Assembly: GCA_037137535.1 (NCBI GenBank)
Contig: JBAXKC010000004.1
Span: 1 to 64,000, forward strand
Reading direction: 5' to 3'
Length of the DNA: 64,000 nucleotides
DNA from: a bacterium
Lineage (GTDB): Bacteria > Cyanobacteriota > Vampirovibrionia > Gastranaerophilales > JBAXKC01
Below the pieces are notes generated by a model that did no database searches, was not told where the DNA came from, and worked only from the letters and a program-made list of their open reading frames with translations. Made by a program: the position numbers and the translations under genes. Of this stretch, positions 148 through 58,648 are shown in pieces (position 1 is the first letter of the stretch; every line of letters begins with the position of its first letter).

Positions 148-825
148 ATGACAAATGAAGAATTAGAATATGTTGAAGCTGTTGATTGTTGCTGTTATTT
201 GCCAAGACTTGGCGAACCTGCACCAGATTTTATAGCTGTAACAACACATGGACAAATAAAACTTTCCGAATTTAATAAAGGCAGTTGGGTATTGCTTTTC
301 TCACATCCATCAGATTTTACTCCTGTTTGTACAACAGAATTTATGGCATTTGCCGATAAACAGGCTGAATTTGATAAAAGAAACGTAAAACTCATGGGAC
401 TTAGCGTTGATAGCGTTTATTCACATATTGCCTGGGTTAAACAAATAGAAGAATTATTTGAAGTAAAAATCAAATTCCCTATAATCGCAGATATTCCTAT
501 GAATGTCAGCGAACTTTACGGAATGATTCATCCTGGAATAAGCGAAGCTCATCCAATACGTTCAATTTTCTTAATCGATCCGAATGGAATAATTAGAACA
601 ATAATCTATTATCCATCCAGTGTTGGCAGAAATATTGATGAAATTATCCGTTTAATTGATGCCATGCAAGTTGTAGACAAAGAAGGTGTTGCAACTCCCG
701 TAAACTGGAAACCTGGTGAAAATGTAATAATCCCACCTCCAAAAACAGTTGAAGATGCCTATAAAGCAGAGCATGCAGGACATGAAGAATGCAGCAGCTG
801 GTATCTCTGCAAAAGAAAAGTATAA
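148..825 (+). CDS. Peroxiredoxin (Prx6/AhpC-TSA family)
   Basis: FSHPSDFTPVCTTE peroxidatic motif, GRNIDE and TPVNWKPG motifs; AAGGAG RBS upstream. Confidence 0.93.
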   Translation: MTNEELEYVEAVDCCCYLPRLGEPAPDFIAVTTHGQIKLSEFNKGSWVLLFSHPSDFTPVCTTEFMAFADKQAEFDKRNVKLMGLSVDSVYSHIAWVKQIEELFEVKIKFPIIADIPMNVSELYGMIHPGISEAHPIRSIFLIDPNGIIRTIIYYPSSVGRNIDEIIRLIDAMQVVDKEGVATPVNWKPGENVIIPPPKTVEDAYKAEHAGHEECSSWYLCKRKV

Positions 826-841
826 ATTATTTTTCTAAACT

Positions 842-876
842 AAAAAGTATGGGTTTTAATAAAACCCATACTTTTT
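842..876. terminator. Bidirectional intrinsic terminator between convergent genes
   Basis: AAAAAGTATGGGTTTT-aat-AAAACCCATACTTTTT perfect inverted repeat. Confidence 0.85.
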
Positions 877-896
877 TATATTGAGATAGTTACTGC

Positions 897-1277
897 TTAT
901 TTACAACCGCAACCACAACCGCAATCTTCTTGTTTTTCTTCTTGAGGAACAGCTTTTAATTCAACAACAGGCGCAACCGTTGCAACTGAATCATTATCTT
1001 TATACATAAAATATAAACAAATTTCTGTAGCAACAAGAATTCCATTTAAGATATAAAGAGCTAACACAACGTCCATTGCATAAAGAACTTTGTGAATAAT
1101 ACCGGCGATATATCCAATAAAAATTAATGAAAGGAATAAAATACTTTTTCCTTTTACGCTTTTTGCTTTATATGTTTTGCTGATAGCAAAAGGCCAGCTT
1201 GAACCAAAACAAACTAACATTACCATTTCAAAAACGCTAAATGTATGCCCTAACAATTCAAATTTAAGTTGTAACAT
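897..1277 (-). CDS. Small 3-TM membrane protein (PQ-loop/SemiSWEET-like) with C-terminal Cys-rich tail
   Basis: Three hydrophobic segments, 'KSVKGKSILF' PQ-loop-like linker, ends DCGCGCGCK. Confidence 0.6.
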   Translation of the reverse strand: MLQLKFELLGHTFSVFEMVMLVCFGSSWPFAISKTYKAKSVKGKSILFLSLIFIGYIAGIIHKVLYAMDVVLALYILNGILVATEICLYFMYKDNDSVATVAPVVELKAVPQEEKQEDCGCGCGCK

Positions 1278-1403
1278 TCTTTTTCACCTTCCGTAAAATT
1301 AACTATTGTTTAATACTAGAGTTTTGATGTTATATCAATTATGAATATTATTCAACATGTAAAACACATAAGAAAAATATCTTTTAACATTATTTTAAAA
1401 ATC

Positions 1404-1429
1404 AAAGGACGTTTTAATAAACGTCCTTT
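1404..1429 (-). terminator. Intrinsic terminator after the 621-aa gene
   Basis: AAAGGACGTTT-taat-AAACGTCCTTT inverted repeat just past the stop. Confidence 0.7.
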
Positions 1430-1448
1430 TCTTCCCCGATTATTTTAT

Positions 1449-3314
1449 TTAACCTGCATAAGCCTTTTTTCTATTAAGCAAATCTTTTAAAGTTTGCTCC
1501 ATTTGCGGAGCTTTTGCCTGTGGAGTATTTTGAGTAGCTATAATTTGAGGCTTATTTTCAGTTTTTTGTTCATTTTTAACTTGTATATTTTTTGACGACA
1601 CCTGCAACTTATCAACATTTCCATTTTGTTGTGCTGCAAGCTGTGCTTTTCTCTTTTTTTCTGTGACATAAGCATTATACTTAGGAAGAACTATACCAAG
1701 CATAGCCGTTGACCAGACAAAACCTGTAATCCAAGAAATATTCTTATTGAAATTAAGTTTCTTAAGAAGCTCTTTGGATAAAGCAGCTGAATCACCTGCA
1801 ACTTTGTCAAAAGTTTCCGGTCTAAGCATAGTTTTTGCTTTTTCTGTAAGTTTGCCTGTTCTTTTAACATTCTCAACATAAGCAGAAATATCATTATGAG
1901 ACATTAATCCAGATTTAAAGAATTTGCCTACTTTATCAAGAATATTACCACCCTCAGAGGTTTCACCTTTGACAAGCATACCCTTGCTCAAGTAACCACC
2001 CATAAGTTTAGCCGCAACACTTCCAAGTACAAGCCAGTTCAAATAACCAAGAACATCTCTCGTAAGTGTTTCACGAAACTCGTTAGGATCTCTAGCAGCG
2101 AATAATCGGCCTGTGATAGTTAAAGGATAAATCCCTCTGAAGAAACCAACGTCAGCATAAGGTCCTGTAATAGTTGGATCAATCCAACCTTTAAAAGCTA
2201 ATTTTGGTTTTTGTGAGTTTTGGGTATTAACAGCTGTTTTATTATCAGTTTTTACTGTTTTATTTTTAGAATTTTTATCATCATTTCCAAAATCAGAATA
2301 ACCTACAAAGCCTGATTTACCTGTTCTTGCTTTTGTAATAGCACGATTAATAAACTGGAAAGAGAAACATAGCGAACCAATAATAGCAAAAGTAGCAACT
2401 GTTTTAAATTTCGAAGCACCTTTAAAGGTTTCAACAGCCTTTCCTAATGCTTTATCAATATCAACTTTATTATTTTGAAGCTTCTCTTTTACTGAAGCAG
2501 ACATACCTTTTTCATCATATTTGGTTAAAATATGACGTCCAATATCAACAATATCTCTAACAAAATGATCAGCAGAAGTTGCGATAGACTCTTTTTCTCC
2601 GAGCTTAATGCTAAAACCACTTCGCTCTCCAACGGCATCAGCTAATTGCACGGCAATTTTTTCAGCCTTTTCCTTATCTACATGTGGATGTAAAATAAGC
2701 TCCTGTAATGATGTTAGTATTTGGCCAAACTCTTTATTCTCATGTCCATTGAAATTTTTGCCACTAGCATCTACAGCATGATCAAGAAACTTAACGACTT
2801 TTGATCCGCCATCAGCCTTTGTTCCAACACTTACATGAAGACCGTCAAAGCATTTTTTGACATATTCGTTAACTTTACCATTTATATCATTATTCTTATC
2901 AAGGTTAGTCCAAACATCTTTATGTAAATAATCAACAACTGCGGGTCTAGCATGCAAAGTAGTCTTAACACCAGTCGGATTATTAAATTTTCCGGCTAAT
3001 CCAGCTAATCCCATAGCCACAAAACCAGGAATAATACACATTGAAACAGCGCCGAATGATTCTCTTAAAAAGGTTTCCACACCTGCATAAGGATTTCTTT
3101 TTGCATCAATATATGACCTTGGCCCGATCATAGAGGCAAAGTCTAAAAGTGAATAGTTTAAAAGATCGTTTGTATCAATTGTTTTAATTACATTAGTAGC
3201 GACAGATCCTAAATCTCCAAACGCCAATTCACGCTGGTGGTTTTTATCTTGAGGTGCTCTTTTATGAGCATACTGCTGTGGAGCAATTAAATGATTGTTT
3301 ACGTTTAAACCCAT
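1449..3314 (-). CDS. Hypothetical lineage-specific membrane protein, paralogue of 4707..6737
   Basis: 621-aa ORF, several hydrophobic segments, shared motif blocks with the 676-aa ORF; GAAGGTG RBS. Confidence 0.75.
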   Translation of the reverse strand: MGLNVNNHLIAPQQYAHKRAPQDKNHQRELAFGDLGSVATNVIKTIDTNDLLNYSLLDFASMIGPRSYIDAKRNPYAGVETFLRESFGAVSMCIIPGFVAMGLAGLAGKFNNPTGVKTTLHARPAVVDYLHKDVWTNLDKNNDINGKVNEYVKKCFDGLHVSVGTKADGGSKVVKFLDHAVDASGKNFNGHENKEFGQILTSLQELILHPHVDKEKAEKIAVQLADAVGERSGFSIKLGEKESIATSADHFVRDIVDIGRHILTKYDEKGMSASVKEKLQNNKVDIDKALGKAVETFKGASKFKTVATFAIIGSLCFSFQFINRAITKARTGKSGFVGYSDFGNDDKNSKNKTVKTDNKTAVNTQNSQKPKLAFKGWIDPTITGPYADVGFFRGIYPLTITGRLFAARDPNEFRETLTRDVLGYLNWLVLGSVAAKLMGGYLSKGMLVKGETSEGGNILDKVGKFFKSGLMSHNDISAYVENVKRTGKLTEKAKTMLRPETFDKVAGDSAALSKELLKKLNFNKNISWITGFVWSTAMLGIVLPKYNAYVTEKKRKAQLAAQQNGNVDKLQVSSKNIQVKNEQKTENKPQIIATQNTPQAKAPQMEQTLKDLLNRKKAYAG

Positions 3315-3417: not shown

Positions 3418-3612
3418 GAAAATTGCCCCATGAGAAAAAATATATTTTTTAAAATTTTGAAAGAAATAGGAATTTTATTGATAAATTTAAAACATTAAAG
3501 TTTATTTTCTCTTTAAATCGTGATTTTTATAACAAAAGATTAAAGAAACAAATAAATCAAATCAAATTAAGTGTAAAAACAAAACTTAAAGTTTCTTAAC
3601 ATTTGAAAAAGA

Positions 3613-4679
3613 GGCGAATTCGGGCTTAAGATGCAACACATATAGAGACTTGTTGTAATTTATAAAATTTTTGATTTGGTGTTTTATACCCTAATACTTT
3701 CATAGGACGATTATTAATCCAATCTTCAACGTATTGAACTTGTTCATCTGATATTTTATCAAAGTCAGTTCCTTTTGGGAAAAATCTTCTGATTAAGGTG
3801 TTTAAATTTTCAATAGTACCTTTCTCCCAAGCGTGATAAGGCTTACAAAAGAACGATTTCACCTTCAAGTTTTCATTTACTTTTTCGTGCCAGCAAAACT
3901 CGCACCCATTGTCATAAGTTATTGTTTTAGCTATTTTAATAATGTTATTTTTATTTAATGCGTACACAATCGCATTAGACGCTTGCTCGGCAGTTTTCTG
4001 GGCAAGCTTTTTTATTTTAATCATTCTTGTAGCTCTGTCTGCAATAACAAGAAGGGCTGATTTAGAGCCTCTGCAGGAAACAACAGTATCTGCCTCAAAA
4101 TGTCCTAATTCTTCTCTTTTATTTGCTTCTATGGGTCTGAAATCAATATCTATTCTGTTTGGGATTAAAGTTCTTTTGCCTTTACGTCTTGATTGAGGTT
4201 TTCTTCCTAAGTGCTTTCTTGTTAAATACTTTGACAAATGGCTATTACCCTTGTAGATAAAGTCATATATTGCATCTTTACCTACTTTGATTGCAATATC
4301 TTCAAGCATCGTTACTGAAATTATTTCAGGCGACCAGCCAAGTTTAAGCTTTTCTATTATGTATTCTTTAACTTTAGGTTCATCAGTTTTTCTTGTTCTT
4401 CGAGTATTTAATTTATTCTTACGGATATTTTCAATTGTACTAACAGCAAAATATCGGTTTTTAACAATAACGGACGTATCTTTTTTAAATTCTCTACTTA
4501 TTGTGCTTGGACTTCTTCCTAGTTCTTTTGCTATTTTTCTTTTTGAAAAATTATGAGAACTTAAAACGGCAATCTGTTCTCTTTCTTCGGAGGTTAACTG
4601 TTTAAAACTATTTCTCACTTTGCTACTCCTTTCGCTTTCTTATTTTAGCAAAGTGTTGCATTTTATTTCAGAATTCGCC
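3613..4679 (-). mobile_element. IS30-family insertion sequence, apparently intact
   Basis: 27-bp imperfect terminal IRs (GGCGAATTC...ATGCAACAC, 22/27 match) at 3613-3639 and 4653-4679; AGA direct repeat on both flanks (3610-3612, 4680-4682); internal transposase. Confidence 0.92.
3626..4618 (-). CDS. IS30-family DDE transposase
   Basis: N-terminal HTH (IAKELGRSPSTISRE), WSPE, GHFEADT, TYDNGCEF, WEKGTIEN, NNRPMKVLGYKTP motifs; GTG start with AAGGAG RBS. Confidence 0.95.
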   Translation of the reverse strand: MRNSFKQLTSEEREQIAVLSSHNFSKRKIAKELGRSPSTISREFKKDTSVIVKNRYFAVSTIENIRKNKLNTRRTRKTDEPKVKEYIIEKLKLGWSPEIISVTMLEDIAIKVGKDAIYDFIYKGNSHLSKYLTRKHLGRKPQSRRKGKRTLIPNRIDIDFRPIEANKREELGHFEADTVVSCRGSKSALLVIADRATRMIKIKKLAQKTAEQASNAIVYALNKNNIIKIAKTITYDNGCEFCWHEKVNENLKVKSFFCKPYHAWEKGTIENLNTLIRRFFPKGTDFDKISDEQVQYVEDWINNRPMKVLGYKTPNQKFYKLQQVSICVAS

Positions 4680-4706
4680 AGAATCGGAGGGATAAAGATA
4701 AAATTT

Positions 4707-6737
4707 TTATTTTTTCTGCAAGAACTTTGTTATTGCTTGATTAATAGAACTATTTACATCAGGAACATTAACTTGTTTTTGTTCAGGCTGAATATTTTTA
4801 TTTTTATATAATTTCTTTGTGTAATTAATATTAAACCAAGGCAAGAACCAACCTAAGAATCCTGAAACAGCTACAATACTTACAGCTTCCGGCAAACTTT
4901 TAAGAGCTTCAGCAAATTTCACAAGATGATTACCTTCTTTGCTTAGTTCAGCCGTAACTTTATCTAATAATGGTTTTAATTTTTCATCCGAATGAGCTTT
5001 TTTGATTAACGAGATAATTTGTTCATTACTTGACGGTAACAATAAATCAGCCTTACCTGCTTTAAATGGTGCGGTTAAAAAGCCAAATACTCCATTATTG
5101 ATTTTTTCACCTTTACTGCCTAACTTTTCAGCTATTTCATTAAAGGCCTTTTTTGAATCATCTGTTAAAAAATCAAATATTTTATGTAAATTTCCACCAT
5201 GTTTTGAAATATTTTCACTAAAATCAACCAATCCATTTTTATACTTGCCTACTCCTGAATAAATATCGTTTATATTCTCAAAAGACATAGGTTGAACACC
5301 TTTTTTAGGTCTTAAATGATCAGTTATAAAAGCAAAACCTTCTGATAATTTGGAAGAAATAGGAAAGCCTGTAACTTTTCTTGAAATGGTGGAAGTAATA
5401 TTTCTAAGAATAGGAATAGCAAAAACAATTGTTGATAGTCCGCTAAAGTCTCTTGTTGCGACTTCCCTTCTTTCATCGGCATTTCTAGCTTGAAGAAGCC
5501 TCGCACCTAACATAATACCAAGCGTATAAAACGCAAGAATCGCATGTGGTGCATTTTGCTTATTAAAATCTAAATATCTGAAAAATTTACTTCCTCCCCC
5601 TGAAAAAGAAACTTGTTTCTTTTGAGAAGAATTAGCTTCTGAAGGCTTATTTGTGGCTGTATTAATTTCAAGCTTTTTAAATGCTCCCAAATTAATTGCA
5701 TTTGACTGACGGATGGGAACATTAGCTTTATTCTGCTGAGTAACTAGAACTTGGTTGTCCGCAGATTTTGTTAAACCGTCAATGCCTGGGAATTGCTTAT
5801 TTCTTTTATACATAATGGGAATTATGTATAGAAAACTTGCAGTTGCAAGAACAGTAGCAAAAAAGTTAAATTTTCGCCCGTTTGATTTTATATTATGAAG
5901 ATTTTCAATAACACCAGAAAGTTTTTCTTTAGATGAAGTTTTTGCTGTTTCAGCCACCTTTTCAACAATATCTTTTGAATAATTATGCAAATCTTCAACT
6001 AAAGTTCCTATTGTTTTTGTAAAGGTATTATTTGTTAATGTATCTTTTAAAGAAACCTCATGAGAATTATTAAGATGCAAACCATGAGCCTTATTCAAAT
6101 CGGAAACGATCTCCACTAGTTCTTTATTAAGCAGAGCAACTTTATTTTTATCTTTTTCTGTTTCCAATAATCCAATATTTTTTAGAATTTTACTTATTTC
6201 TTCATTTATATTAACTGGAGATTTAAGCTCAACTTTCTTGTGTGCCTCAAAGGCTTCTTGGAAGACATTTGTATAAAACTTATCTTTAAGTTGTCTACTA
6301 TTTTCAAAGTGTGGATCTTTAGCTACATGATTTTTAAAAGAAGCCGTTAATGAATCTAAAGTCTGATGCTGAATGTTTGATGCAGAACCAAACAGTTTCC
6401 CCGATAAAGCAATCAAACCCATTGGAATAAAAAACATACTAGGACCTGAAAATATTTCTCTAATCAGTTCTTCAAACCCTGATTTATAATTAGGATGTCC
6501 CAATTCTTCTTTATTTCTGTTAAAAGCTTGATATGTACGTGGAAGAACCATTCCAATAGTATCTACAAAAAGAAAATCTGCTAATACTCCACCATGCTCA
6601 ATCCATTTTATGCCGCCTGTAACAGCATCAGTGGCGGCAGTTGCTAGATTACCCTTAAAGGGAATCACCTGAGAGAAGTTAGGCTGTTGTTTCAGAGAAT
6701 ATTGTCTGTTATAAGTATTTTGAGTTAAATTAATCAT
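4707..6737 (-). CDS. Hypothetical lineage-specific membrane protein, paralogue of 1449..3314
   Basis: 676-aa ORF with hydrophobic segments and N-terminal IPFKG motif; GAAAGG RBS directly after a leader terminator. Confidence 0.75.
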   Translation of the reverse strand: MINLTQNTYNRQYSLKQQPNFSQVIPFKGNLATAATDAVTGGIKWIEHGGVLADFLFVDTIGMVLPRTYQAFNRNKEELGHPNYKSGFEELIREIFSGPSMFFIPMGLIALSGKLFGSASNIQHQTLDSLTASFKNHVAKDPHFENSRQLKDKFYTNVFQEAFEAHKKVELKSPVNINEEISKILKNIGLLETEKDKNKVALLNKELVEIVSDLNKAHGLHLNNSHEVSLKDTLTNNTFTKTIGTLVEDLHNYSKDIVEKVAETAKTSSKEKLSGVIENLHNIKSNGRKFNFFATVLATASFLYIIPIMYKRNKQFPGIDGLTKSADNQVLVTQQNKANVPIRQSNAINLGAFKKLEINTATNKPSEANSSQKKQVSFSGGGSKFFRYLDFNKQNAPHAILAFYTLGIMLGARLLQARNADERREVATRDFSGLSTIVFAIPILRNITSTISRKVTGFPISSKLSEGFAFITDHLRPKKGVQPMSFENINDIYSGVGKYKNGLVDFSENISKHGGNLHKIFDFLTDDSKKAFNEIAEKLGSKGEKINNGVFGFLTAPFKAGKADLLLPSSNEQIISLIKKAHSDEKLKPLLDKVTAELSKEGNHLVKFAEALKSLPEAVSIVAVSGFLGWFLPWFNINYTKKLYKNKNIQPEQKQVNVPDVNSSINQAITKFLQKK

Positions 6738-6757
6738 TTTTTAAAACCTTTCATAAT

Positions 6758-6795
6758 AAAAACCTGTCGATATCTATGTGATCCGACAGGTTTTT
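6758..6795 (-). terminator. Attenuator terminator in the 5' leader of the 676-aa gene
   Basis: Minus strand AAAAACCTGTCG...CGACAGGTTTTTATT, ending about 20 nt before the ATG. Confidence 0.8.
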
Positions 6796-6828
6796 TATAA
6801 TCTAAATTAACAAGAATAATAAAAAGTA

Positions 6829-6915
6829 TCAGACCAAAACATGCATCATGCAGCAACACATCATGAACATCATTAACATGTTTTTGCAAAAATTGATTGG
6901 CTGATTTGTTTTCAT
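6829..6915 (-). CDS. Met/Cys-rich leader peptide MKTNQPINFCKNMLMMFMMCCCMMHVLV (28 aa)
   Basis: Translated by hand; GAGGA RBS; 8 Met and 4 Cys codons, mostly clustered; followed by antiterminator/terminator; TTGACA at 7001-7006. Confidence 0.8.
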   Translation of the reverse strand: MKTNQPINFCKNMLMMFMMCCCMMHVLV

Positions 6916-7023
6916 TATTATTTCCTCATTAATTTTGTGGCTTGTAAAATATCATTCGGCTTACCTAACTTTATCTATTATTTATATAAAATAATATTAT
7001 TGTCAATAGACTAAAAAAATTTA

Positions 7024-8430
7024 TTATTTTACTAAATTATTTTTCAAATATTCATTAATTTTCACCGATGCAGCATTATTTATAATTGTAGTATTTCCAT
7101 GGCTGATTAAATCAAATCTTAATGACGGATCATAAGTTAAAGAATTCATAATATAATCGCTTGCATTCTCGTCAACAGAAGTTGAACAATATTCTTGGAC
7201 ATAAGAATCCGCCAAAGTTAAACCCTTTCCATTAATTAAAGGTTCTTCAAGTTTATCCGGCAAATTTTCTGAGGTAATCAGTTCAGAATTATTGATTTCA
7301 TCTTTTATTGATTGAAGTAAAATCACTCCGTCTTTAGGCTTTAGAGTTTTTAAGAAACTTGCAACATTAGGCTTATTATTTTCAGCAGGTAATTTTACAT
7401 CATTGCTTATAAGCACTTTTTCAATATCCACATTTTTAACAGATTGATATAATTTTCTCAAAGACTTAGAAGGCAGAGTTTCTTCGGAAAATTTATCAGA
7501 GGTTATAGGCTCAACATAATCAGGATCGATACTTAAAATATCAGGATTTTTTGCTTTTAACTTTTCACCTTCACTAATTGCAACTCTTCCTAATAATTCA
7601 CCCAATGATATCTCTTTAGAATCCTCTTCCTCCACTTCCTTTAAAAGAACAGATTTATCAAATTTATTAACATTATTGATTTGCTCAGAAATCTTAGCCA
7701 CCTCTTTTCTAGCCGTTTTAATCACTTCTTTTCTAAATAAAAATTTATCCGCATCATGTATAACATTATTAAAATATTCTTTGGTTTCGTCATTCTTTTT
7801 AAATGTATCAAATGTTCTTGCTAATAATGTTTTAGCATTATTGAATTTACCTTCCTCTGACCAATCTTTAGCTATGTTGTAGTGATAATCGTCAATATGA
7901 CCATCTTTATTAAAACGCTTCAATAACAATATCGCAACGTCATTATCTCTATCAACAACAGCTTTTAAAGAAGAAGCCGTTTTAATAAGATCTGCATGCT
8001 TTAATGGATCATATTTCTGATTTGGTCCTATTGGAATAGTTCGTTGCCCGACATATTGTGATACATTTTCAATTAATTTAATACTTTTTTCTTCACCAAT
8101 TTTTTCAAAGAATTCTGAAAAAGTCGGTGTTTTAGACTTATTATTAAGTTGAGAATTATAAGTGTTATCTGTTGACTTAAAGAGATTATCCAATGATTTT
8201 CTGTCACTGTTAGTTATTTTTTTTGGAGCTTTAATCGCTTCATTTGCATAATCAAATACAGGGGAATTCTGAATAATATCATAAACTCGTCTTTGTTTAT
8301 GTGTTAAATTTTCTACTATTTTGCTGTTTACCGTTTGAATATTCTCATTATCCTGCACTTCAACCTTATTTGATTTAAAAGTTATTGTCGGGACATTCTG
8401 TTTTACATTGTAATTAAATTTAGTATTCAT
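7024..8430 (-). CDS. Hypothetical soluble protein with N-terminal ITFKS motif
   Basis: 468-aa ORF, AGGAG RBS, no recognisable domain. Confidence 0.7.
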   Translation of the reverse strand: MNTKFNYNVKQNVPTITFKSNKVEVQDNENIQTVNSKIVENLTHKQRRVYDIIQNSPVFDYANEAIKAPKKITNSDRKSLDNLFKSTDNTYNSQLNNKSKTPTFSEFFEKIGEEKSIKLIENVSQYVGQRTIPIGPNQKYDPLKHADLIKTASSLKAVVDRDNDVAILLLKRFNKDGHIDDYHYNIAKDWSEEGKFNNAKTLLARTFDTFKKNDETKEYFNNVIHDADKFLFRKEVIKTARKEVAKISEQINNVNKFDKSVLLKEVEEEDSKEISLGELLGRVAISEGEKLKAKNPDILSIDPDYVEPITSDKFSEETLPSKSLRKLYQSVKNVDIEKVLISNDVKLPAENNKPNVASFLKTLKPKDGVILLQSIKDEINNSELITSENLPDKLEEPLINGKGLTLADSYVQEYCSTSVDENASDYIMNSLTYDPSLRFDLISHGNTTIINNAASVKINEYLKNNLVK

Positions 8431-8655
8431 GATCTTTTCTCCTAATTTCGTTTAATCCTCATCATAGTTAATGATTAACTACGGCTCTTCTTCAAAAAAT
8501 GGTTCTACACTAAAAACATATACGCCTTTCAAGGCAAGTATTTATAAAAGTAAATTTAACTTACAAAGTTAAAGGTTTTTTTAATATAAGCTCCTTTCTT
8601 AAAATAATTTACACTAGCCGTAAATATTTCGGCAAACAGCACTTTGTGTTCAAAT

Positions 8656-8688
8656 AAAAACTGCCTAATTAAAATACAGGCAGTTTTT
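8656..8688 (-). terminator. Attenuator terminator downstream of the second leader peptide
   Basis: Minus strand AAAAACTGCCTG-tattttaat-TAGGCAGTTTTTATTT. Confidence 0.8.
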
Positions 8689-8725
8689 TAAAGTTTATAA
8701 ATTCTAAAATAAAAAACAATGCCTG

Positions 8726-8788
8726 CTAACACATGCAAAAGCACATGCAGCACATATTTAGAGATTTTTTTTGTTTTAGAACGATCAT
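8726..8788 (-). CDS. Cys/Met-rich leader peptide MIVLKQKKSLNMCCMCFCMC (20 aa)
   Basis: Translated by hand; AGGA RBS; last 9 codons are MCCMCFCMC; 14-bp antiterminator starts right after the TAG; TTGACA at 8860-8865. Confidence 0.82.
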   Translation of the reverse strand: MIVLKQKKSLNMCCMCFCMC

Positions 8789-8900
8789 ATTAATTAATCC
8801 TAAAAATTATTATGTTAAAAGAATTTATTCTTATCTCATTTAAAAACAAATATCTATGTTGTCAAGAAATTATTTTTTATCTTATAAAACTTCACAACAA

Positions 8901-8928
8901 AAAAGCGATCCTATTACAGATCGCTTTT
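8901..8928 (-). terminator. Terminator after glucan phosphorylase
   Basis: AAAAGCGATC-N8-GATCGCTTTT with T-tract on the minus strand. Confidence 0.75.
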
Positions 8929-8947
8929 AAGGTTTTAGATATTAAAT

Positions 8948-10648
8948 CTATTTTGAACCAGATAACTCAAGTTTATTCATGTTGTTTACACTAGCTGTAT
9001 CAACATTAGAAACATTTAAAGCATCTTCGTTCTTTTGATTGCCATGAGCAATTGGATTATAAAGTCTGTTGTAATACTCAACAACCATTCTATCAGAGTT
9101 GAAATAACCTGCAGCTGTTCTTACAGCTTTAGTCATTAAGTTAGCCCAACCATCTTTATCATCATAGTATGTTGGTATTAATTTGTTTTCAATAATATCC
9201 ATCATGCATTCATAATCTTTCCAATGACGCTCTTCCCAAGGCATTTCGTCATCAAGACCTTCATACATAAGGTTATATCCGTTAATATCATCAAATGTAC
9301 CTTCAACTGACCAACCATCAAAAGTTGATAAGTGTAAAGCACCGTTCATGTTAGCTGACATACCTGATGTACCTGAAGCTTCAAATGGTCTTAACGGTGT
9401 ATTAAGCCATACGTCAGAACCTTTTTTCATAAGAGCGCTTAATTCAAGCTCATAATTGAAAAGAACTGCAACGTTAGGAAGCTCATCAGATTGCTTAAGG
9501 ATATTGTTGAACATATCACGACCTAAAGTATCAGCAGGGTGGAATTTACCAGCAAATACGATTTGAAGTTTGTTCTCTCTAAGAAGTTTGCTGATTCTTT
9601 CTCTATCCATAAGAATTAACCAAGCTCTCTTATAGTCAGCAAATCTTCTAGCCCAGGTAATTGTAAGAACGTTCGGATCAAATCTTTTACCTGTTTTGTT
9701 AGCAATATGCTTAAATAAATCTTTTTTCATATCTACTTTAGCATCTAACATTTGTTCGTTAGTTTTTGCATTTTTAATTCTGTCATCTTGCCAGTACTGT
9801 AAGTTAACAGCGTTGGTAATAGCAGTAATAGGGCATCTGTTATCAACATGTTCCCACATTTTGTTAGCTACTAAACCATGAAGCTGAGATACAGCATTTG
9901 ATAAACGGCTCATTCTTAAAGCAGCAACTGTAAGTGAGAAGTTTTCACCGCCACCAAGTTCAATAGCTCTTTCTCTTGAGCAACCTGCAAAGAATCCTGC
10001 ATCATTAAGAAGATCAATCCAATGAACTTCGTTACCTGCCGCAACAGGAGTGTGAGTTGTGAATACAGTTTTTTCTTTAACTTTTTCAAGATCTCCGTCA
10101 AACTTTCTAAGAAGTTCAAAAGCAGCAGGAAGAGCATGACCTTCATTCATGTGAATAAGATCATAATTATAGCCAACAGCGTCTAATACTCTTACACCAG
10201 CAACACCAAGAACAACTTCCTGACTTACTCTTGTTTTCTCATCAGCATCATATAATCTGTGAGTAATGTTTCTAAGTTCAGGAGGGTTTTCAGGAATGTC
10301 TGTTGATAAGAAATAAACAGGAACAGTTCCAAAAGTTTCAGGCTCTAATCTTAAAGCTTTAACTTTTACTGTACGTCCGAAAATTTCAACATCAACGATT
10401 ACACCAGTATCTGTTAGAAAATCGTATGTTTTTTTAACGTAAGCAATTTCAACATTGCCGTCGTTACCGATTCTCTGATCATAGTAGCCGTATGTCCAAA
10501 GCATACAAACGCCTACCATTGGCAATCCTAAATATCCTGCGGATTGCATGTGGCTACCAGCCAAAAATCCTAAACCACCTGAATAGGTACTTAGGGACTG
10601 ATCTATAGCCATTTCCATTGAAAAGTATGCTACATTTGGTAATGTCAT
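8948..10648 (-). CDS. glgP: Alpha-glucan (glycogen/starch) phosphorylase, short form
   Basis: YFSME, YSGGLGFLAG, HMNEGH, FTTHTP, ARRFADYKR, EASGTSGM motifs. Confidence 0.92.
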   Translation of the reverse strand: MTLPNVAYFSMEMAIDQSLSTYSGGLGFLAGSHMQSAGYLGLPMVGVCMLWTYGYYDQRIGNDGNVEIAYVKKTYDFLTDTGVIVDVEIFGRTVKVKALRLEPETFGTVPVYFLSTDIPENPPELRNITHRLYDADEKTRVSQEVVLGVAGVRVLDAVGYNYDLIHMNEGHALPAAFELLRKFDGDLEKVKEKTVFTTHTPVAAGNEVHWIDLLNDAGFFAGCSRERAIELGGGENFSLTVAALRMSRLSNAVSQLHGLVANKMWEHVDNRCPITAITNAVNLQYWQDDRIKNAKTNEQMLDAKVDMKKDLFKHIANKTGKRFDPNVLTITWARRFADYKRAWLILMDRERISKLLRENKLQIVFAGKFHPADTLGRDMFNNILKQSDELPNVAVLFNYELELSALMKKGSDVWLNTPLRPFEASGTSGMSANMNGALHLSTFDGWSVEGTFDDINGYNLMYEGLDDEMPWEERHWKDYECMMDIIENKLIPTYYDDKDGWANLMTKAVRTAAGYFNSDRMVVEYYNRLYNPIAHGNQKNEDALNVSNVDTASVNNMNKLELSGSK

Positions 10649-43711: not shown

Positions 43712-45394
43712 TTAAGCGCTTAAATTTATTGGCTTATGTGCTTCTTCAACCATTAATTCAAGTTCAACAATACCGGTATTTTGATCAACTTTTACAACTT
43801 TAAATTGAGAATTTCTAGGTAATAACAACTCACTTTCTGAAATTCCTTTTACGCCTGTTGACTCAATATCTAAAGCTTTTGCACCTTTAGGAACTTTAAT
43901 TTTCAGAGAATAACCTTGCCACTCATCACCATAGCCATTAAATGCCATAATTTCTTTTGGGTCATATGATGTTGAGGTGTATCCGTTGTCAGTATAAATC
44001 ATACCTTCCTTTAATTCATATGGATATTTATACTCAACTCCTCCAGCTTCAGGGAATACCTGTTTTTTAGCTACCCCTCTATATACAACTACATCTTGTG
44101 GACACTCTGATCGTTCAATTACTTTATCTAAATTATTAACGATATTATCTAATTGTTCTAATTTTTTTGCAGGTTGAGTTAAAATATCCTCAGCATCAAA
44201 AGCCCCTGTTTTTCTAGCATATGGATTAATATCTTGGTAATAATCACCTTTATACTTAGTCATAGCATCTAGTTCTTGTTTACTAAAGCTATCTTTATAC
44301 TGTTCTTTAAACTGTTGGTTCAAATTAGCGCGTTCCGATTTATTTAAAGGTTTATATCCATTTTGTTCACTGGAAAGATCTGAAATAAAGTCTTCTCTTC
44401 GTTTACGCATAGCCTCAGACTTAGCAATACGCTTAGCTTCATCCGCTTTTTGCTTAGCTTCGATTTCAGCCTTTTGTTTGGCTTCAATTTCTGCTTTTTG
44501 CTTAGCTTCAATTTCAGCCTTTTGTTTGGCTTCAATTTCTGCTTTTTGCTTAGCTTCGATTTCAGCCTTTTGCTTGGCTTTAATTTCTGCTTTTTGCTTA
44601 GCTTCGATTTCAGCCTTTTGCTTGGCTTCAATTTCTGCTTTTTGCTTAGCTTCGATTTCAGCCTTTTGCTTGGCTTCAACTTCTTTATTAACAGGTTTCG
44701 GATCTTCTACTTTAGTCTTTTTATTAATAAAAGGAAGTTGCGCTTTTAAATTTATCCATGCGCTACCATCTTTAAAGGCATTAAAAGATTTTGCCAAACT
44801 TGAAGGAGTTTCTTTAAAGGTTTGAATAACTGCTTCAAATGTATTCATTTTTGATACATCAGCAGCTATATTAGCTTGTTTAAGTACAGTTTTTGCGCCT
44901 GCAATAGATGGGATTAATGTAGTTGCAGCTGCTCCAATATCATAAAAGGCCTTTTCAACGTCATCGCCATCTTTTGCAGTTGCAATTTTATAAGCTGCCG
45001 TTCCCGCCTGAAAAACTCCTGTTGCAATACCTGCTGCGGCCATAAACGGAAGAATTGCCCCACCTGTTGCAACAGTTAAAGCTCCTGCGGCTGCCATCAT
45101 GCCGGCACCCATTACAAAATTTTGCGGACTACTAAACATTGAAGTAATAGGAGAAATTAAACCTTTTCCAAAATTTAACGCAGCTTCGCCGACATCAAAT
45201 TTTTTATTATTAGAAGAATTTATTTCTTCTTTAGATTCAGTATTATTTACAAAAATATCACTTGGCAGTTCTAAATTATTCATGTTAATTGTTTTTATAT
45301 TTTGCTCAGCAAAAGGGTTATAAGGCTGTGGTTGTATCACAGCCTTTTTATTAGAATTATAAGCGTTTAAAAGATTATTATTAAACGAAATCAT
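43712..45394 (-). CDS. ADP-ribosyltransferase toxin (VIP2/C2-like R-S-E class) with Ala/Gly-rich hydrophobic N-domain and repeat stalk
   Basis: Y..IN..., VYRG, YTSTS, E-S-E-LLLPRN.F catalytic motifs. Confidence 0.85.
   Translation of the reverse strand: MISFNNNLLNAYNSNKKAVIQPQPYNPFAEQNIKTINMNNLELPSDIFVNNTESKEEINSSNNKKFDVGEAALNFGKGLISPITSMFSSPQNFVMGAGMMAAAGALTVATGGAILPFMAAAGIATGVFQAGTAAYKIATAKDGDDVEKAFYDIGAAATTLIPSIAGAKTVLKQANIAADVSKMNTFEAVIQTFKETPSSLAKSFNAFKDGSAWINLKAQLPFINKKTKVEDPKPVNKEVEAKQKAEIEAKQKAEIEAKQKAEIEAKQKAEIKAKQKAEIEAKQKAEIEAKQKAEIEAKQKAEIEAKQKAEIEAKQKADEAKRIAKSEAMRKRREDFISDLSSEQNGYKPLNKSERANLNQQFKEQYKDSFSKQELDAMTKYKGDYYQDINPYARKTGAFDAEDILTQPAKKLEQLDNIVNNLDKVIERSECPQDVVVYRGVAKKQVFPEAGGVEYKYPYELKEGMIYTDNGYTSTSYDPKEIMAFNGYGDEWQGYSLKIKVPKGAKALDIESTGVKGISESELLLPRNSQFKVVKVDQNTGIVELELMVEEAHKPINLSA
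44445..44684 (-). repeat. Ten tandem 24-bp coding repeats (AEIEAKQK) arranged as a 48-bp dimer
   Basis: Alternating units gctttttgcttagcttcgatttca / gccttttgyttggcttcaatttct. Confidence 0.9.
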
Positions 45395-55334: not shown

Positions 55335-55362
55335 AATAGTGTAGTTATTTAGCTACACTATT
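55335..55362 (+). terminator. Hairpin/terminator between the SLOG gene and metX
   Basis: AATAGTGTAG-N8-CTACACTATT. Confidence 0.55.
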
Positions 55363-55402: not shown

Positions 55403-56569
55403 ATGGAAACAAAAGAAATTTGTACTGAGATTGACTTATCAAAAAGTATTGGGATTGTAGAAACAAAATATTTTACCTATGAAGGCAAAATTAAATTTGA
55501 AAGCGGAGTTGAATTCGGGCCTATTACTATTGCCTATGAAACTTACGGAGAATTAAACAGCGAACGAAATAACACTATCATGGTATTTCACGCACTATCA
55601 GGAGACGCCCACGCAGCAGGTTATTATGAAGAAGATAAAAAACCGGGTTGGTGGGATGACATGATAGGCCCCGGGAAAGCCTTTGATACAAACAAATATT
55701 TTGTAATCTGTTCAAACTTTTTAGGTGGATGCAAAGGAACAACAGGTCCTTCTTCCATTAATCCCGAAACAGGAAAACCTTACGGAACAGACTTTCCAAT
55801 GATTACCATCGGAGATATGGTAAAATGCCAGAAAAAACTTATTGAATACTTAGAAATTCCTTCAATATTATGTGTTGCAGGTGGTTCGATGGGTGGAATG
55901 CAAGCTATGGAATGGACTGCAACCTATCCTGATATGGTTAAATCAACAATTGTAATTGCTTCAACCAGTCGACTGTCTACTCAAAGCATAGCCTTTAATG
56001 AAGTAGGAAGAAACGCAATTATTTCAGACCCAGAATGGAATAACGGAAACTATTATGAAAACACCGTACCCTCAAGGGGGCTGTCAATAGCAAGGATGAT
56101 CGGACATATTACCTATTTAAGCCAAGAATCAATGCACGAAAAATTTGGAAGAAGACTTCAAGATAAAACCCATTTAGACTTTAGTTTTGATATAGATTTT
56201 CAAGTGGAAAGCTATTTAAGACACCAAGGGAAAACCTTTGTTCAAAGGTTTGATGCTAATAGCTATCTCTATATCACAAGAGCTATGGACTATTTTGACC
56301 TTCAAGCAAAATATGGAAGTCTTGCAAAAGCCTTTAACGAATCAAACTCAAAATTCTTAGTAATTTCTTATACGTCTGACTGGTTATTCACTCCAAATCA
56401 ATCTAAAGAAATTGTAAGTGCTTTAATGAATGCGGATAAAGAAGTTTCTTATGTAAATATTGACTCTCCATACGGACATGATGCATTTTTACTTGAAGAA
56501 AAAGTTCAAACAAAGATAATTAACGGTTTTTTAAATGATATTTCATCAAAAATATTATCCGAAGTTTAG
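55403..56569 (+). CDS. metX: Homoserine O-acetyltransferase
   Basis: [42 protein letters not shown]. Confidence 0.95.
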
Positions 56570-56580
56570 GCGGTAAGAAA

Positions 56581-57219
56581 ATGAAAAAGAAAAAAATCAG
56601 CGAACATTACTTAAAATCTAAAGGCTTACATCTAAATTATTCTATAATTTCAGACCTCATCGAAAAAAATGCAAAAGTTTTAGATTTGGGTTGCGGCTCA
56701 GGCGAGCTTTTAAAACTCTTAAAAGAAAAGAAAAACATTTCGGGAAGAGGCATTGAGATTGATCAAGATAATGTAATTTCCTGCATAGAAAAAGGAATTT
56801 CAGTATTTCAGGGCGATCTTGACGAAGGATTAGCCGAATATGAAGAAAAAGCCTATGATTATGTAGTTTTAAGCCAGACATTACAATGGACGAAAAAACC
56901 TGATTATGTAATAGATGAAATGCTCAGAGTAGGGAAAAAAGGCGTTATAAGTTTTCCTAACTTTGCATACTGGCGAGTACGATGTCAGCTGTTTTTCGGA
57001 GGATTTATGCCAAAATCTAAAATGCTTCCGTTTGAATGGTTTAATACTCCAAACATTCACCTTTTAACAATTAATGATTTTAGAAAATTCTGCAAAGAAA
57101 GAAATATTAAAATTATTGATGAAAGCTATACAACCCGTGCTTGCGTAAGAAACGGATTTTTCCATAAATTATTGTCAAATATATTTGCAGAAGAGGTAAT
57201 ATTCATTGTTACAAGATAA
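56581..57219 (+). CDS. metW: Methionine biosynthesis protein MetW
   Basis: VLDLGCG.G, LSQTLQ, SFPNF..W, W..TPNIH; follows metX. Confidence 0.92.
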   Translation: MKKKKISEHYLKSKGLHLNYSIISDLIEKNAKVLDLGCGSGELLKLLKEKKNISGRGIEIDQDNVISCIEKGISVFQGDLDEGLAEYEEKAYDYVVLSQTLQWTKKPDYVIDEMLRVGKKGVISFPNFAYWRVRCQLFFGGFMPKSKMLPFEWFNTPNIHLLTINDFRKFCKERNIKIIDESYTTRACVRNGFFHKLLSNIFAEEVIFIVTR

Positions 57220-58648
57220 TAAAATAGAAATAAACAATGCTATAACAAGCATAGAAGAAGATGATGACACACAATTCAGTAAATCTCTAGGGATTTTTGA
57301 TGCAGTTGCAATTATTTCAGGCTCAATGATAGGCTCAGGTATTTTTATAGTATCTGCTGAAACTTTAAGACAGATACAATCACCTGTTCTATTACTCATT
57401 ATATGGGCTATTACAGGAATTATGAGTATAGCAGGCGGTCTTTGCTTTGGTGAGCTTGCAGTCAGATTCCCTGAAGCGGGAGGACAATATGTTTACCTTA
57501 AAAAAGCGTGGGGTAATCTTGTCGGTTTCCTTTACGGATGGACTTTTTTCCTCGTAATAGAATCAGGAGCAATAGCGGCTGTTTCTGTTGCTTTTGCCAA
57601 ATTCATAGGAAGAGTTCTACCTTTTATTTCAACTAAACACTATTTATTACATTCAAACATTATAAATATTTCATATGTCCAAGTGCTGGCAATAGCCTTA
57701 ATCTTCTTGATTACCTACATCAACATGCAGGGGGTTCAATGGGGAGCTTTAGTTCAAAAAGTATTCACAAGTACAAAAATTGTAGCGTTGGTTGCAATTC
57801 TTATTTGCGGATTGACATTAGGGCTGAACATGGACGTTATAAGACATAACTTTTTAGAAATCCCTACTTTTCCAACATTCCACATGAATATTTTCTCTGC
57901 AGTAGCAGCAGCACTTGTCGGAGCATTATTTGCGGCTGATTCTTGGAATAGCGGAACTTTCGTAGCAGCAGAAATGAAAGAGCCGACTAAAGACCTTCCT
58001 AAAGCATTATTTTGGGGCATTTTAGCGGTAGTTAGCCTTTATTTCCTCACCAATGTAATCTATTTATCAGTTTTAAACGTTGAACAAATAAAAACAGCGG
58101 CTGAAGATATAGTTGGCATAGCCCTTATGAAACAAATCTTAGGCACACCGGGAATTATTGCAACAGCAATTGTAATAGCCATTTCAGCTTTCGGAGCCGT
58201 AAACGGAATGGTTTTAACAGGCGCAAGAGTTTATTATGCAATGGCAAAAGACGGTTTATTTTTTAAAGGAATGGCAAAGCTAAATCACAAAACAGCCGTT
58301 CCACAAAATGCAATCATTGCTCAATGCATATGGGCAAGCTTTTTAACATTAAGCGGAAGTTTCTCACAATTACTTGATTATGTAATATTTGCAGCCTTAT
58401 TCTTCTATATTCTTACAGTTGGCGGCTTATTTATAATCAGAAAAAAAGACAGCGAACCGTTTGATTATAAAGGCTCTTTCTATCCGTTCTTACCTGCATT
58501 ATATTGCACATTAGCAGGATTTACGGCTGTAAACCTTTTAATATATAAGACAGAGTATTCTTTATACGGTTTATTGATTATATTAAGCGGAGTACCGATT
58601 TATTTCTTCTGGAGATACAAGAATCGTAAGAAACTTAGCACTAAATAG
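57206..58648 (+). CDS. APC-family amino acid permease (LAT/SteT-like)
   Basis: IGSGIF, ELA..FP.AGG.Y.YL, E.K.P...LP, RV.YAMA.DG; about 12 TMs. Confidence 0.9.
   Translation: MLQDNKIEINNAITSIEEDDDTQFSKSLGIFDAVAIISGSMIGSGIFIVSAETLRQIQSPVLLLIIWAITGIMSIAGGLCFGELAVRFPEAGGQYVYLKKAWGNLVGFLYGWTFFLVIESGAIAAVSVAFAKFIGRVLPFISTKHYLLHSNIINISYVQVLAIALIFLITYINMQGVQWGALVQKVFTSTKIVALVAILICGLTLGLNMDVIRHNFLEIPTFPTFHMNIFSAVAAALVGALFAADSWNSGTFVAAEMKEPTKDLPKALFWGILAVVSLYFLTNVIYLSVLNVEQIKTAAEDIVGIALMKQILGTPGIIATAIVIAISAFGAVNGMVLTGARVYYAMAKDGLFFKGMAKLNHKTAVPQNAIIAQCIWASFLTLSGSFSQLLDYVIFAALFFYILTVGGLFIIRKKDSEPFDYKGSFYPFLPALYCTLAGFTAVNLLIYKTEYSLYGLLIILSGVPIYFFWRYKNRKKLSTK

Follow-up and report, generated by a model that had tools for sequence, protein, structure and literature searches.

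The 64,000-nucleotide stretch of DNA analyzed here (the window; positions 1 to 64,000 of contig JBAXKC010000004.1, from a Gastranaerophilales genome) encodes on its minus strand a 20-codon open reading frame (ORF), hereafter sORF1, that closes with a dense run of methionine and cysteine codons and is followed by a hairpin and then by a 468-amino-acid (aa) orphan ORF (P0001). The locus raises the question of whether such a miniature ORF reads the supply of sulfur amino acids and thereby controls transcription of the gene behind it. Our analysis suggests that sORF1 and a second Met/Cys-rich mini-ORF (sORF2), located 1.9 kb downstream between the 468-aa ORF and a 676-aa ORF (P0002), are probably two homologous ribosome-mediated Cys+Met transcription attenuators, members of a small family in Melainabacteria-like genomes. 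This conclusion draws on sequence comparison and on RNA folding models. The putative unit consists of a promoter, a ribosome-binding site, a 20- to 31-codon leader ORF with a dense Cys/Met run, and an intrinsic terminator placed before the structural gene.

An earlier sequence-only reading of the sORF1 region had listed, on the minus strand, a TTGACA box at 8860-8865, an AGGA ribosome-binding site, and a 20-codon ORF at 8788-8726 ending in MCCMCFCMC, and all of these elements were recovered at those positions (Table 1). It had also claimed a 14-bp pairing just after the stop codon; pairing is found there, but the duplex between 8727-8709 and 8690-8675 counts 15 pairs (14 Watson-Crick and 1 G-U) with a 2-nt bulge and a free energy of -16.7 kcal/mol. 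The further claim that the 8690-8675 segment doubles as the 5′ arm of an intrinsic terminator (CTGCCTG/TAGGCAG plus T-tract) agrees with a hairpin of -14.9 kcal/mol formed by that same arm. The 141-nt leader folds better than 200/200 shuffled sequences (z = -5.24), and its minimum-energy fold includes the terminator. Two points of that reading need revision: the TTGACA box is followed by a poor -10 element (either TAAATG, 8842-8837, or TTAAAT, 8843-8838), and the second module at 6915-6829 had been overlooked. The promoter scan did not list the TTGACA site and instead listed TTGTGA-17-AATAAT at 8897-8869 (9/12). Because the alpha-glucan phosphorylase gene upstream (8948-10648) ends in its own terminator (8928-8901), sORF1 needs a promoter of its own and forms its own small transcription unit. 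The minus-strand scan found no promoter-like site between 8650 and 8430.

The sORF2 unit has its own promoter-like site, ribosome-binding site, regulatory codon run, and intrinsic terminator, the end of which lies 15 nt from the ATG of the 676-aa gene. Its candidate antiterminator arm also pairs with the ribosome-binding site and start region of sORF2, forming a long-range competing helix. In this tandem layout, transcripts reading past the sORF1 terminator would cross the orphan gene and then meet a second attenuator. The codon composition of the two mini-ORFs is exceptional in the window, where a six-frame scan of the 64 kb found only two stop-to-stop frames with at least 6/9 Met+Cys, namely sORF1 and sORF2, each reaching 8/9. 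Simulated windows (n = 40, first-order Markov) contained a mean of 0.07 clusters at 6/9 and none at 8/9. The Met/Cys codon runs at 8729-8760 and 6855-6885 (minus strand) also fold on themselves into hairpins, since tandem ATG and TGC codons create GCATGC-type palindromes; it is speculative that these could act as RNA polymerase pause hairpins that synchronize transcription with translation.

A profile search of genome contigs with the alignment of the P0002 family returned four related loci (L001 to L004), three of which hold upstream DNA (L003 is without the upstream region). Two of these three, L001 and L002, present a Met/Cys-rich sORF, then a hairpin with a T-run, and then the P0002 homologue, and both sORFs have a promoter-like site and a ribosome-binding site (AAGGG and AAGGA, respectively) ahead of them. 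Their leader ORFs reach 6/9 Met+Cys, and no further frame in the four fetched loci was found at 5/9 or above. Across the leaders of sORF1 (W1), sORF2 (W2), L001, and L002, Met accounts for 11 to 26% of the codons, compared to 2% in the window proteins. Of the 21 Cys codons in the four leader ORFs, 15 are TGC, compared to 68 of the 146 Cys codons in 42 long genes of the window; T-boxes, too, prefer TGC as their Cys specifier according to a source available in part (PMC2940859). There is no space for a promoter between terminator and gene in W2, L001, and L002. The genes of L001 resemble those of Melainabacteria-labelled loci, though its record says Gammaproteobacteria.

Local alignment supports common ancestry for some of the leader pairs. 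The sORF1 leader aligned with that of L002 above 500/500 shuffles, while its alignment with L001 was beaten by 10/500 and that of sORF2 with L001 by 3/500; the comparisons of sORF1 with sORF2 (39/500) and of sORF2 with L002 (87/500) were not significant. The stretches common to the leaders are a ATGTGYTGCTGCATG core and TTAGCAGG...TTTTT. Within the antiterminator arm, TTAGCAGG spells Leu-Ala-Gly codons in L001 and L002, whereas in sORF1 its TAG is the stop codon and the motif lies partly outside the ORF. The encoded peptides (20 to 31 aa) are poorly conserved in sequence except for their Met/Cys codons. Their N-terminal halves differ by indels and nonsynonymous changes even between L001 and L002, in which the C-terminal half is nearly identical. 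As TTAGCAGG is coding in two leaders and contains a stop in sORF1, yet the leaders are significantly similar, and as the N-terminal halves diverge, the constraint appears to lie on the RNA arm and the regulatory codons and not on the peptide. This pattern fits selection acting on those elements rather than on the peptide.

The alternative pairing was found in three of the four leaders. For sORF1, none of 1,000 dinucleotide shuffles of the upstream sequence gave an antiterminator as good as the observed one. The terminator 5′ arm of L001 and L002 finds its complement within the mini-ORF, in the segment CGATTAGCAGGTTA (codons R-L-A-G-Y), with duplexes of -13.8 kcal/mol (0/1,000 shuffles) and -14.2 kcal/mol (1/1,000), respectively. 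Eight ordinary hairpin-plus-T-run terminators located after long window ORFs served as controls; their best upstream complements ranged from -3.8 to -7.6 kcal/mol, none of the eight was significant, and the best of them was equalled by 44/300 shuffles. The terminator stems differ across lineages (CTGCCTG, CCTGTCGGAT, and CCCGCTAATC), and each has its own upstream complement, the pattern expected if selection maintains the alternative pairing.

Table 1. Coordinates of the two leader units, their presumed target genes, and the leaders of the two related loci (window positions for the first 14 rows; locus positions for the last two; nt, nucleotides)
Feature	Positions	Strand	Details
sORF1 unit, -35-like TTGACA	8860..8865	-	Read directly from the sequence
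sORF1 unit, Shine-Dalgarno-like AGGA	8798..8801	-	9 nt before the sORF1 ATG; read directly
sORF1, 20-codon leader ORF encoding MIVLKQKKSLNMCCMCFCMC	8726..8788	-	ATG at 8788; ORF scan and direct reading
sORF1 regulatory codon run, codons 12-20	8729..8755	-	M C C M C F C M C
sORF1 antiterminator 5′ arm (segment 2), AGCAGGCATTGTTTTTTAT	8709..8727	-	Begins within the TAG stop codon of sORF1
sORF1 shared segment 3, TAAAAAACTGCCTGTA	8675..8690	-	A-tract and CTGCCTG; antiterminator 3′ arm and terminator 5′ arm
sORF1 terminator 3′ arm and T-run	8652..8667	-	TAGGCAG (8667-8661), TTTTTATTT (8660-8652)
P0001, 468-aa orphan ORF	7024..8430	-	AGGAG ribosome-binding site; predicted soluble; presumed sORF1 target
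sORF2 promoter-like site, TTGACA-18-AATAAT	6977..7006	-	11/12 match; promoter scan
sORF2, 28-codon leader ORF encoding MKTNQPINFCKNMLMMFMMCCCMMHVLV	6829..6915	-	GAGGA ribosome-binding site 6927-6923, 7 nt before ATG
sORF2 regulatory codon run, codons 13-24	6844..6879	-	7 Met and 3 Cys in 12 codons
sORF2 candidate antiterminator 5′ arm	6820..6835	-	Overlaps the TGA stop; weak
sORF2 intrinsic terminator	6753..6796	-	A-tract, CCTGTCGGAT / ATCGACAGG, T-run; hairpin -19.1 kcal/mol
P0002, 676-aa membrane protein	4707..6737	-	Melainabacteria-specific family; proposed sORF2 target
L001 leader ORF, MNNSIIKNTNTMNQMCCCMKRMRLAGYFCCC	1043-1138		Homologue 55% identity; hairpin -16.8 kcal/mol; T-run to ATG 32 nt
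L002 leader ORF, MINFITNNNCKMCCCIMRMRLAGYFCCY	3487-3573		Homologue 49% identity; hairpin -18.7 kcal/mol; T-run to ATG 35 nt

The position of a translating ribosome was modelled by folding each transcript to a length just short of the emergence of the terminator 3′ arm, masking the ribosome footprint, and reading the probability (P) that the terminator 5′ arm is paired upstream. With a single ribosome, P for sORF1 was 0.98 when the ribosome stood at Cys13 to Phe17, 0.10 to 0.11 at Met19 and Cys20, 0.08 at the stop codon, and 0.88 with no ribosome; the antiterminator 5′ arm is occluded by a ribosome at codons 19 to 21. In L001 and L002, P was 0.87 at the first Cys cluster, fell further in (to 0.3 to 0.5 and 0.16 to 0.4, respectively), and was again 0.87 both at the stop codon and without a ribosome. 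For sORF2, it was 0.04 in all of these states. The single-ribosome model thus does not reproduce the switch for sORF2 or, at the stop codon, for L001 and L002. These cases need a second model with queued ribosomes, in which the mask covers the transcript from the ribosome-binding site up to the leading ribosome. Under this model, P changed from 0.98 (Met12 to Phe17) to 0.01 at the stop codon in sORF1, from 0.74 (through Met24) to 0.01 to 0.37 from His25 to the stop (0.26 at the stop codon) in sORF2, from 0.87 (through Met19) to 0.13 or less from Arg21 in L001, and from 0.87 (through Ile16) to 0.28 or less in L002. All four leaders switch in the same direction, and the stop-codon value is 0.01 to 0.07 in W1, L001, and L002. 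In each of the four, 21 to 25 nt separate the first Cys of the CC(C) run from the antiterminator arm downstream. The sequence-only reading had proposed folding the leader with and without the ribosome-covered segment, and for sORF1 this comparison gives 0.98 (stalled) versus 0.01 to 0.11 (ORF end) over both models; together with the folding and shuffling results, this upholds the alternative-stem architecture of the trp/his/thr type that the reading had suggested.

These features suggest the following mechanism, in which translation of the leader ORF, stalling, and amino-acid-dependent read-through are inferred. When Cys-tRNA and Met-tRNA are plentiful, ribosomes would reach the end of the leader ORF, where they would occlude or sterically separate the upstream arm of the antiterminator, which would let the terminator fold and end transcription. 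Under a shortage of sulfur amino acids, the leading ribosome would stall in the Met/Cys run, 15 to 25 nt upstream of the arm, and the freed arm could pair with the terminator 5′ half and allow RNA polymerase to read through. In the window, read-through would reach the 468-aa orphan and the gene for the 676-aa membrane protein; in L002, it would reach an operon of a membrane protein, a serine-acetyltransferase-like protein, and a cysteine-synthase-family enzyme. All four leaders share three attenuator features, namely a leader ORF that has a ribosome-binding site, enriched regulatory codons, and an intrinsic terminator in the minimum-energy fold; to these are added an overlapping antiterminator in three of the four, a suitable ribosome geometry (by modelling only), and conservation in relatives.

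The genes behind the terminators may offer a sulfur context for this mechanism. The sequence-only reading had called the 468-aa gene an unrecognizable orphan, and our searches agree. P0001 has no Pfam or NCBIfam family and no hydrophobic segment; a word-index search (5.8 billion clusters) and a full HMMER search (1.84 billion representatives) matched P0001 alone; the Atlas gave no feature match and no structural match above TM 0.28; and profile comparison found no relation to the P0002 family. P0001 is a true orphan without recognizable function. P0002 has at least three strongly hydrophobic segments and 22 relatives (E down to 2e-28), two of which carry as source name uncultured bacterium or Candidatus Gastranaerophilales, and its Atlas neighbors are Melainabacteria hypothetical proteins only. 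The 23 members of the family show no Pfam domain beyond chance-level matches, and a sequence search found no solved relative of P0002.

In L002, the P0002 homologue (3676-5472) is followed after a 2-nt gap by a hexapeptide acetyltransferase gene and, after a further 15 nt, by a gene for a pyridoxal phosphate (PLP) enzyme with a CBS domain. The acetyltransferase best matches serine O-acetyltransferases but stays below both cut-offs (TIGR01172, 145 bits with a cut-off of 210; EpsC model, 146 bits with a cut-off of 150). The PLP/CBS enzyme scores above the threshold of the cystathionine-beta-synthase model (TIGR01137; 550.7 bits versus 510) and matches cysteine-synthase models strongly as well. 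This operon content therefore indicates that the module heads a cysteine-biosynthesis operon in L002. The sequence-only reading had proposed looking in related genomes for such modules; Cys/Met-rich sORFs with terminators stand before P0002 homologues in two loci, one of them at such an operon. In L001, the next gene after the homologue is dnaK (108-nt gap), and in L003 the next genes are convergent.

The presumed targets are themselves depleted in sulfur. Among its 468 residues, P0001 has a single Cys and a single internal Met (0.43%), and the 676 residues of P0002 include 6 Met and no Cys (0.89%), which makes them the two most sulfur-poor of 56 long window ORFs (mean, 0.90% Cys and 1.98% Met, i.e., 2.9%). 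The relatives of P0002 contain 0 to 4 Cys, and the three genes of the L002 operon encode 1.84, 0.32, and 1.75% Cys+Met, compared to 4.8 to 6.1% in three neighbors outside the operon. Proteins made under sulfur shortage reportedly tend to be sulfur-poor, as is said to have been noted by Baudouin-Cornu et al. in 2001 and by Mazel and Marliere in 1989. Sulfur depletion is linked to lower proteome sulfur in the available part of one study (PMC4357790).

Several other observations concern the neighborhood of these genes. An IS30-family insertion sequence (3619-4683, minus strand; transposase ORF 3626-4618, NF033563, E = 1e-71; inverted ends with GGCGAATTC) lies 24 nt past the P0002 stop codon, and its insertion may have severed P0002 from following genes, which in L002 are those of cysteine biosynthesis. 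A 621-aa ORF (1449-3314, minus strand) is a distant P0002-family paralogue (E = 8e-6 and 23% identity with the L001 homologue, over 420 aa) with no Met/Cys mini-ORF upstream. The next ORF after it (897-1277, minus strand) codes for a Cys-rich protein of 126 aa (6 Cys) whose PQ-loop match is borderline (22.6 bits; cut-off 22); the PQ-loop family includes cystine transporters. Divergent from the module in both related loci is a gene for an MntR/DtxR-family regulator (L001, 390-926; L002, 2826-3368; both minus strand) with 8 Cys in 178 to 180 aa and 83% identity between the loci. About 20 to 30 nt separate its start from the leader promoter's -35 region, and the regulator might add metal- or redox-dependent control of that promoter.

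A number of results weigh against an attenuator interpretation and keep our confidence in it short of firm. The -10 element of the sORF1 promoter is weak, and 225 nt lacking significant structure separate the sORF1 terminator from the 468-aa gene. The best sORF2 antiterminator is weak (-8.7 kcal/mol; 78/1,000 shuffles as good), and in the single-ribosome model its P reaches 0.74 solely with the ribosome at codons 1 to 11. The second, C-terminal Cys cluster of L001 and L002 sits where stalling would favor termination, and a ribosome masked at their stop codon leaves the antiterminator at P = 0.87, although a ribosome parked there, between both arms, would be inferred to hinder their pairing sterically. 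Ribosome-free truncated transcripts of W1, L001, and L002 favor the antiterminator (0.87 to 0.88), and in the folding models an untranslated leader might thus read through, unlike the trp leader. The L001 and L002 leaders are near-identical, which leaves only three independent lineages, too few for base-pair covariation. Cysteine genes follow the homologue in one of the three loci with downstream DNA, and the target genes in the window are without known function. The distant homologue at L004 (34% identity; record labelled Planctomycetes) has no Met/Cys sORF upstream. The 613-3024 frame of L004 has an N-terminal half that is P0002-like, a run of N (read as X), and a C-terminal part resembling a different enzyme, and this joined frame is probably a scaffolding join and not a real fusion.

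The main rival explanation is that the Cys/Met-rich peptides are themselves functional products (metal-binding, redox-active, or modified), with the hairpin acting as a leaky gene end that sets the excess of peptide over a partner such as a membrane protein. A gene of this kind would account for the promoter, ribosome-binding site, and terminator that each mini-ORF has of its own, for the Met/Cys richness kept in four peptides, and for the nearly identical C-terminal halves of the L001 and L002 peptides, and it would suit both the adjoining MntR/DtxR-family metal-dependent regulator in those loci and the membrane-protein nature of P0002. We nevertheless consider it unlikely, given that no maturase, exporter, or known peptide-processing family is found among the neighbors, that peptide length and sequence outside the Met/Cys codons are poorly conserved, that the conserved TTAGCAGG is coding in two leaders and noncoding in sORF1, and that the 44-aa stop-to-stop leader frame has no match among predicted proteins in the protein database. 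It also leaves unexplained the antiterminator complementarity (absent from the eight control terminators), the cysteine operon, and the sulfur-poor targets.

A different output is also conceivable, in which the leader ORFs sense Cys/Met or act as small RNAs but work through translation, Rho, mRNA stability, or a trans-acting small RNA rather than through intrinsic termination. The long-range helix of sORF2 sequesters its own ribosome-binding site and start codon, and the terminated units would be RNAs of roughly 170 to 200 nt. There is precedent in mycobacterial polycysteine short ORFs, which act on translation (10.1101/834739, available in part), and in actinobacterial cys leaders without terminator hairpins, for which Rho has been proposed (PMC1262725, also available in part). 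Canonical hairpin-plus-T-run terminators are present in all four leaders (-14.9 to -19.1 kcal/mol), the antiterminator overlaps the terminator arm and not a ribosome-binding site, and the terminator hairpins leave out the downstream gene's ribosome-binding site, which makes such an output quite improbable. That the ORFs and pairings arose by chance in an AT-rich intergenic region beside an ordinary terminator deserves next to no credence. A- and T-tracts do pair promiscuously in DNA of 33% GC, and the sORF2 antiterminator alone is not significant, but this reading is effectively refuted by the simulated windows (0/40 with an 8/9 Met/Cys frame versus two such frames observed), the shuffles (0/1,000 equal to the sORF1 antiterminator), and the control terminators without such complements; in addition, the module recurs before homologous genes in two other genomes.

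Further candidate explanations of the module were rejected on annotation. A ribosomally synthesized and posttranslationally modified peptide (RiPP) precursor with its maturase was set aside, as neither P0001 nor P0002 has a Pfam or NCBIfam family and no maturase lies nearby; the other neighbors of the window module are a phosphorylase, a carbamoyltransferase, and the IS30 transposase. A riboswitch, T-box, or S-box was rejected on the basis of zero Rfam matches at gathering thresholds over the whole window, and relaxed thresholds over 6600-9000 gave a chance snoRNA match only (E = 0.35). A defense island or prophage context was dismissed because the four unknown proteins have no PADLOC or PHROGs match. 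A leaderless sORF of the mycobacterial type was ruled out because Shine-Dalgarno-like sequences and a predicted 5′ leader of about 40 to 55 nt precede the sORFs.

If the attenuator reading holds, it may extend to a lineage-specific "sulfur ribulon," in which one homologous Cys+Met leader-terminator module was copied before unrelated genes (a cysteine operon, a phylum-specific membrane family, and a true orphan); we offer this tentatively and rate it slightly short of an even prospect. In that case, the sulfur-depleted proteins would be parts of an undescribed sulfur-limitation response, the 676-aa family could possibly represent a new type of sulfur-compound transporter or sensor, and the module would be without precedent as an intrinsic-terminator leader-peptide attenuator for sulfur amino acids, besides being the first known to us in a cyanobacterial lineage. 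The placement of the sensor, combined with the Cys/Met depletion, predicts that cells produce the 676-aa family and the 468-aa orphan when sulfur is limiting. The module gives a functional handle on otherwise blank proteins.

Elsewhere in the window, a methionine-biosynthesis cluster (55403-58648, plus strand) comprises a metX-like gene (alpha/beta hydrolase), metW, and an amino-acid permease gene; it has only 96 nt upstream, in which there is no Met/Cys mini-ORF or riboswitch match. A small hairpin, AGTGTAG...CTACACT, lies near this cluster at about 55340-55362. A 560-aa protein (43712-45394, minus strand) has a C-terminal part that matches the ADP-ribosyltransferase exoenzyme domain (PF03496, E = 2.3e-25) and adjoins SPFH/NfeD genes.

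Leader-peptide attenuation is a textbook mechanism, which to our knowledge has been documented for few amino acids and in few phyla. A terminator-based Cys+Met codon sensor would extend it to both sulfur amino acids and to an uncultured gut- and environment-associated sister lineage of the Cyanobacteria. Like the enteric trp, his, phe, leu, thr, and ilv attenuators, the leaders described here combine a short leader ORF rich in regulating codons with mutually exclusive hairpins and an intrinsic terminator. In the trp leader, the regulatory codons lie about 15 to 25 nt upstream of the antiterminator arm, and the present leaders share this geometry. The thr (Thr+Ile) and ilv leaders provide a precedent for multivalent sensing. 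The present leaders differ from the enteric ones in their Cys and Met codons, in their Melainabacteria-like lineage, in window targets that are not biosynthetic genes, in the placement of the antiterminator arm within the leader ORF in L001 and L002, and in the prediction that an untranslated leader favors the antiterminator in three of the four.

Our literature search found no leader peptide in which Met codons are combined with Cys codons, nor any leader peptide from cyanobacterial lineages, although subscription journals were largely uncovered and this is not proof of absence. The available part of PMC2965389 describes leader peptides as known only from Proteobacteria and Actinobacteria, with a new hisS case in Firmicutes. 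For cysteine, the leaders described in two sources available in part are translational or terminator-less versions, in Actinobacteria only: the leaderless polycysteine short ORFs of mycobacteria act translationally (Canestrari et al., 10.1101/834739), and the predicted cys/cbs leader peptides have no terminator hairpins (PMC1262725). The sequence-only reading had called a mixed Cys+Met sensor unusual, which stands for a Cys+Met run coupled to an intrinsic terminator but not for cysteine-codon leader ORFs as such, already known in Actinobacteria. As far as those partial texts go, the actinobacterial polycysteine sORFs likewise use runs of at least two to three Cys codons to report charged tRNA-Cys, count cysteine metabolism among their targets, and occur at several loci as a "ribulon" (10.1101/834739, PMC1262725), whereas the present leaders have ribosome-binding sites, intrinsic terminators, an antiterminator, and co-enriched Met codons. 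The Cys T-box and S-box (S-adenosylmethionine [SAM]) riboswitches of Firmicutes also rely on premature intrinsic termination, placed ahead of genes for serine acetyltransferase, cysteine synthase, and transport and lifted when cysteine or methionine runs short; there, according to the part of PMC2940859 available, the RNA binds tRNA or SAM directly, while here a translated ORF would take that role and no Rfam family was detected. Precursor genes for modified peptides resemble the present units in that a small Cys-rich ORF has a promoter to itself and the downstream genes are expressed only by read-through of a terminator. Lantibiotic-type precursor-peptide genes, for instance, can be followed by a leaky terminator. 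Here, the peptides are very short (20 to 31 aa), no modification or export genes of known families lie nearby, and both the antiterminator and the setting of a cysteine operon point to regulation.

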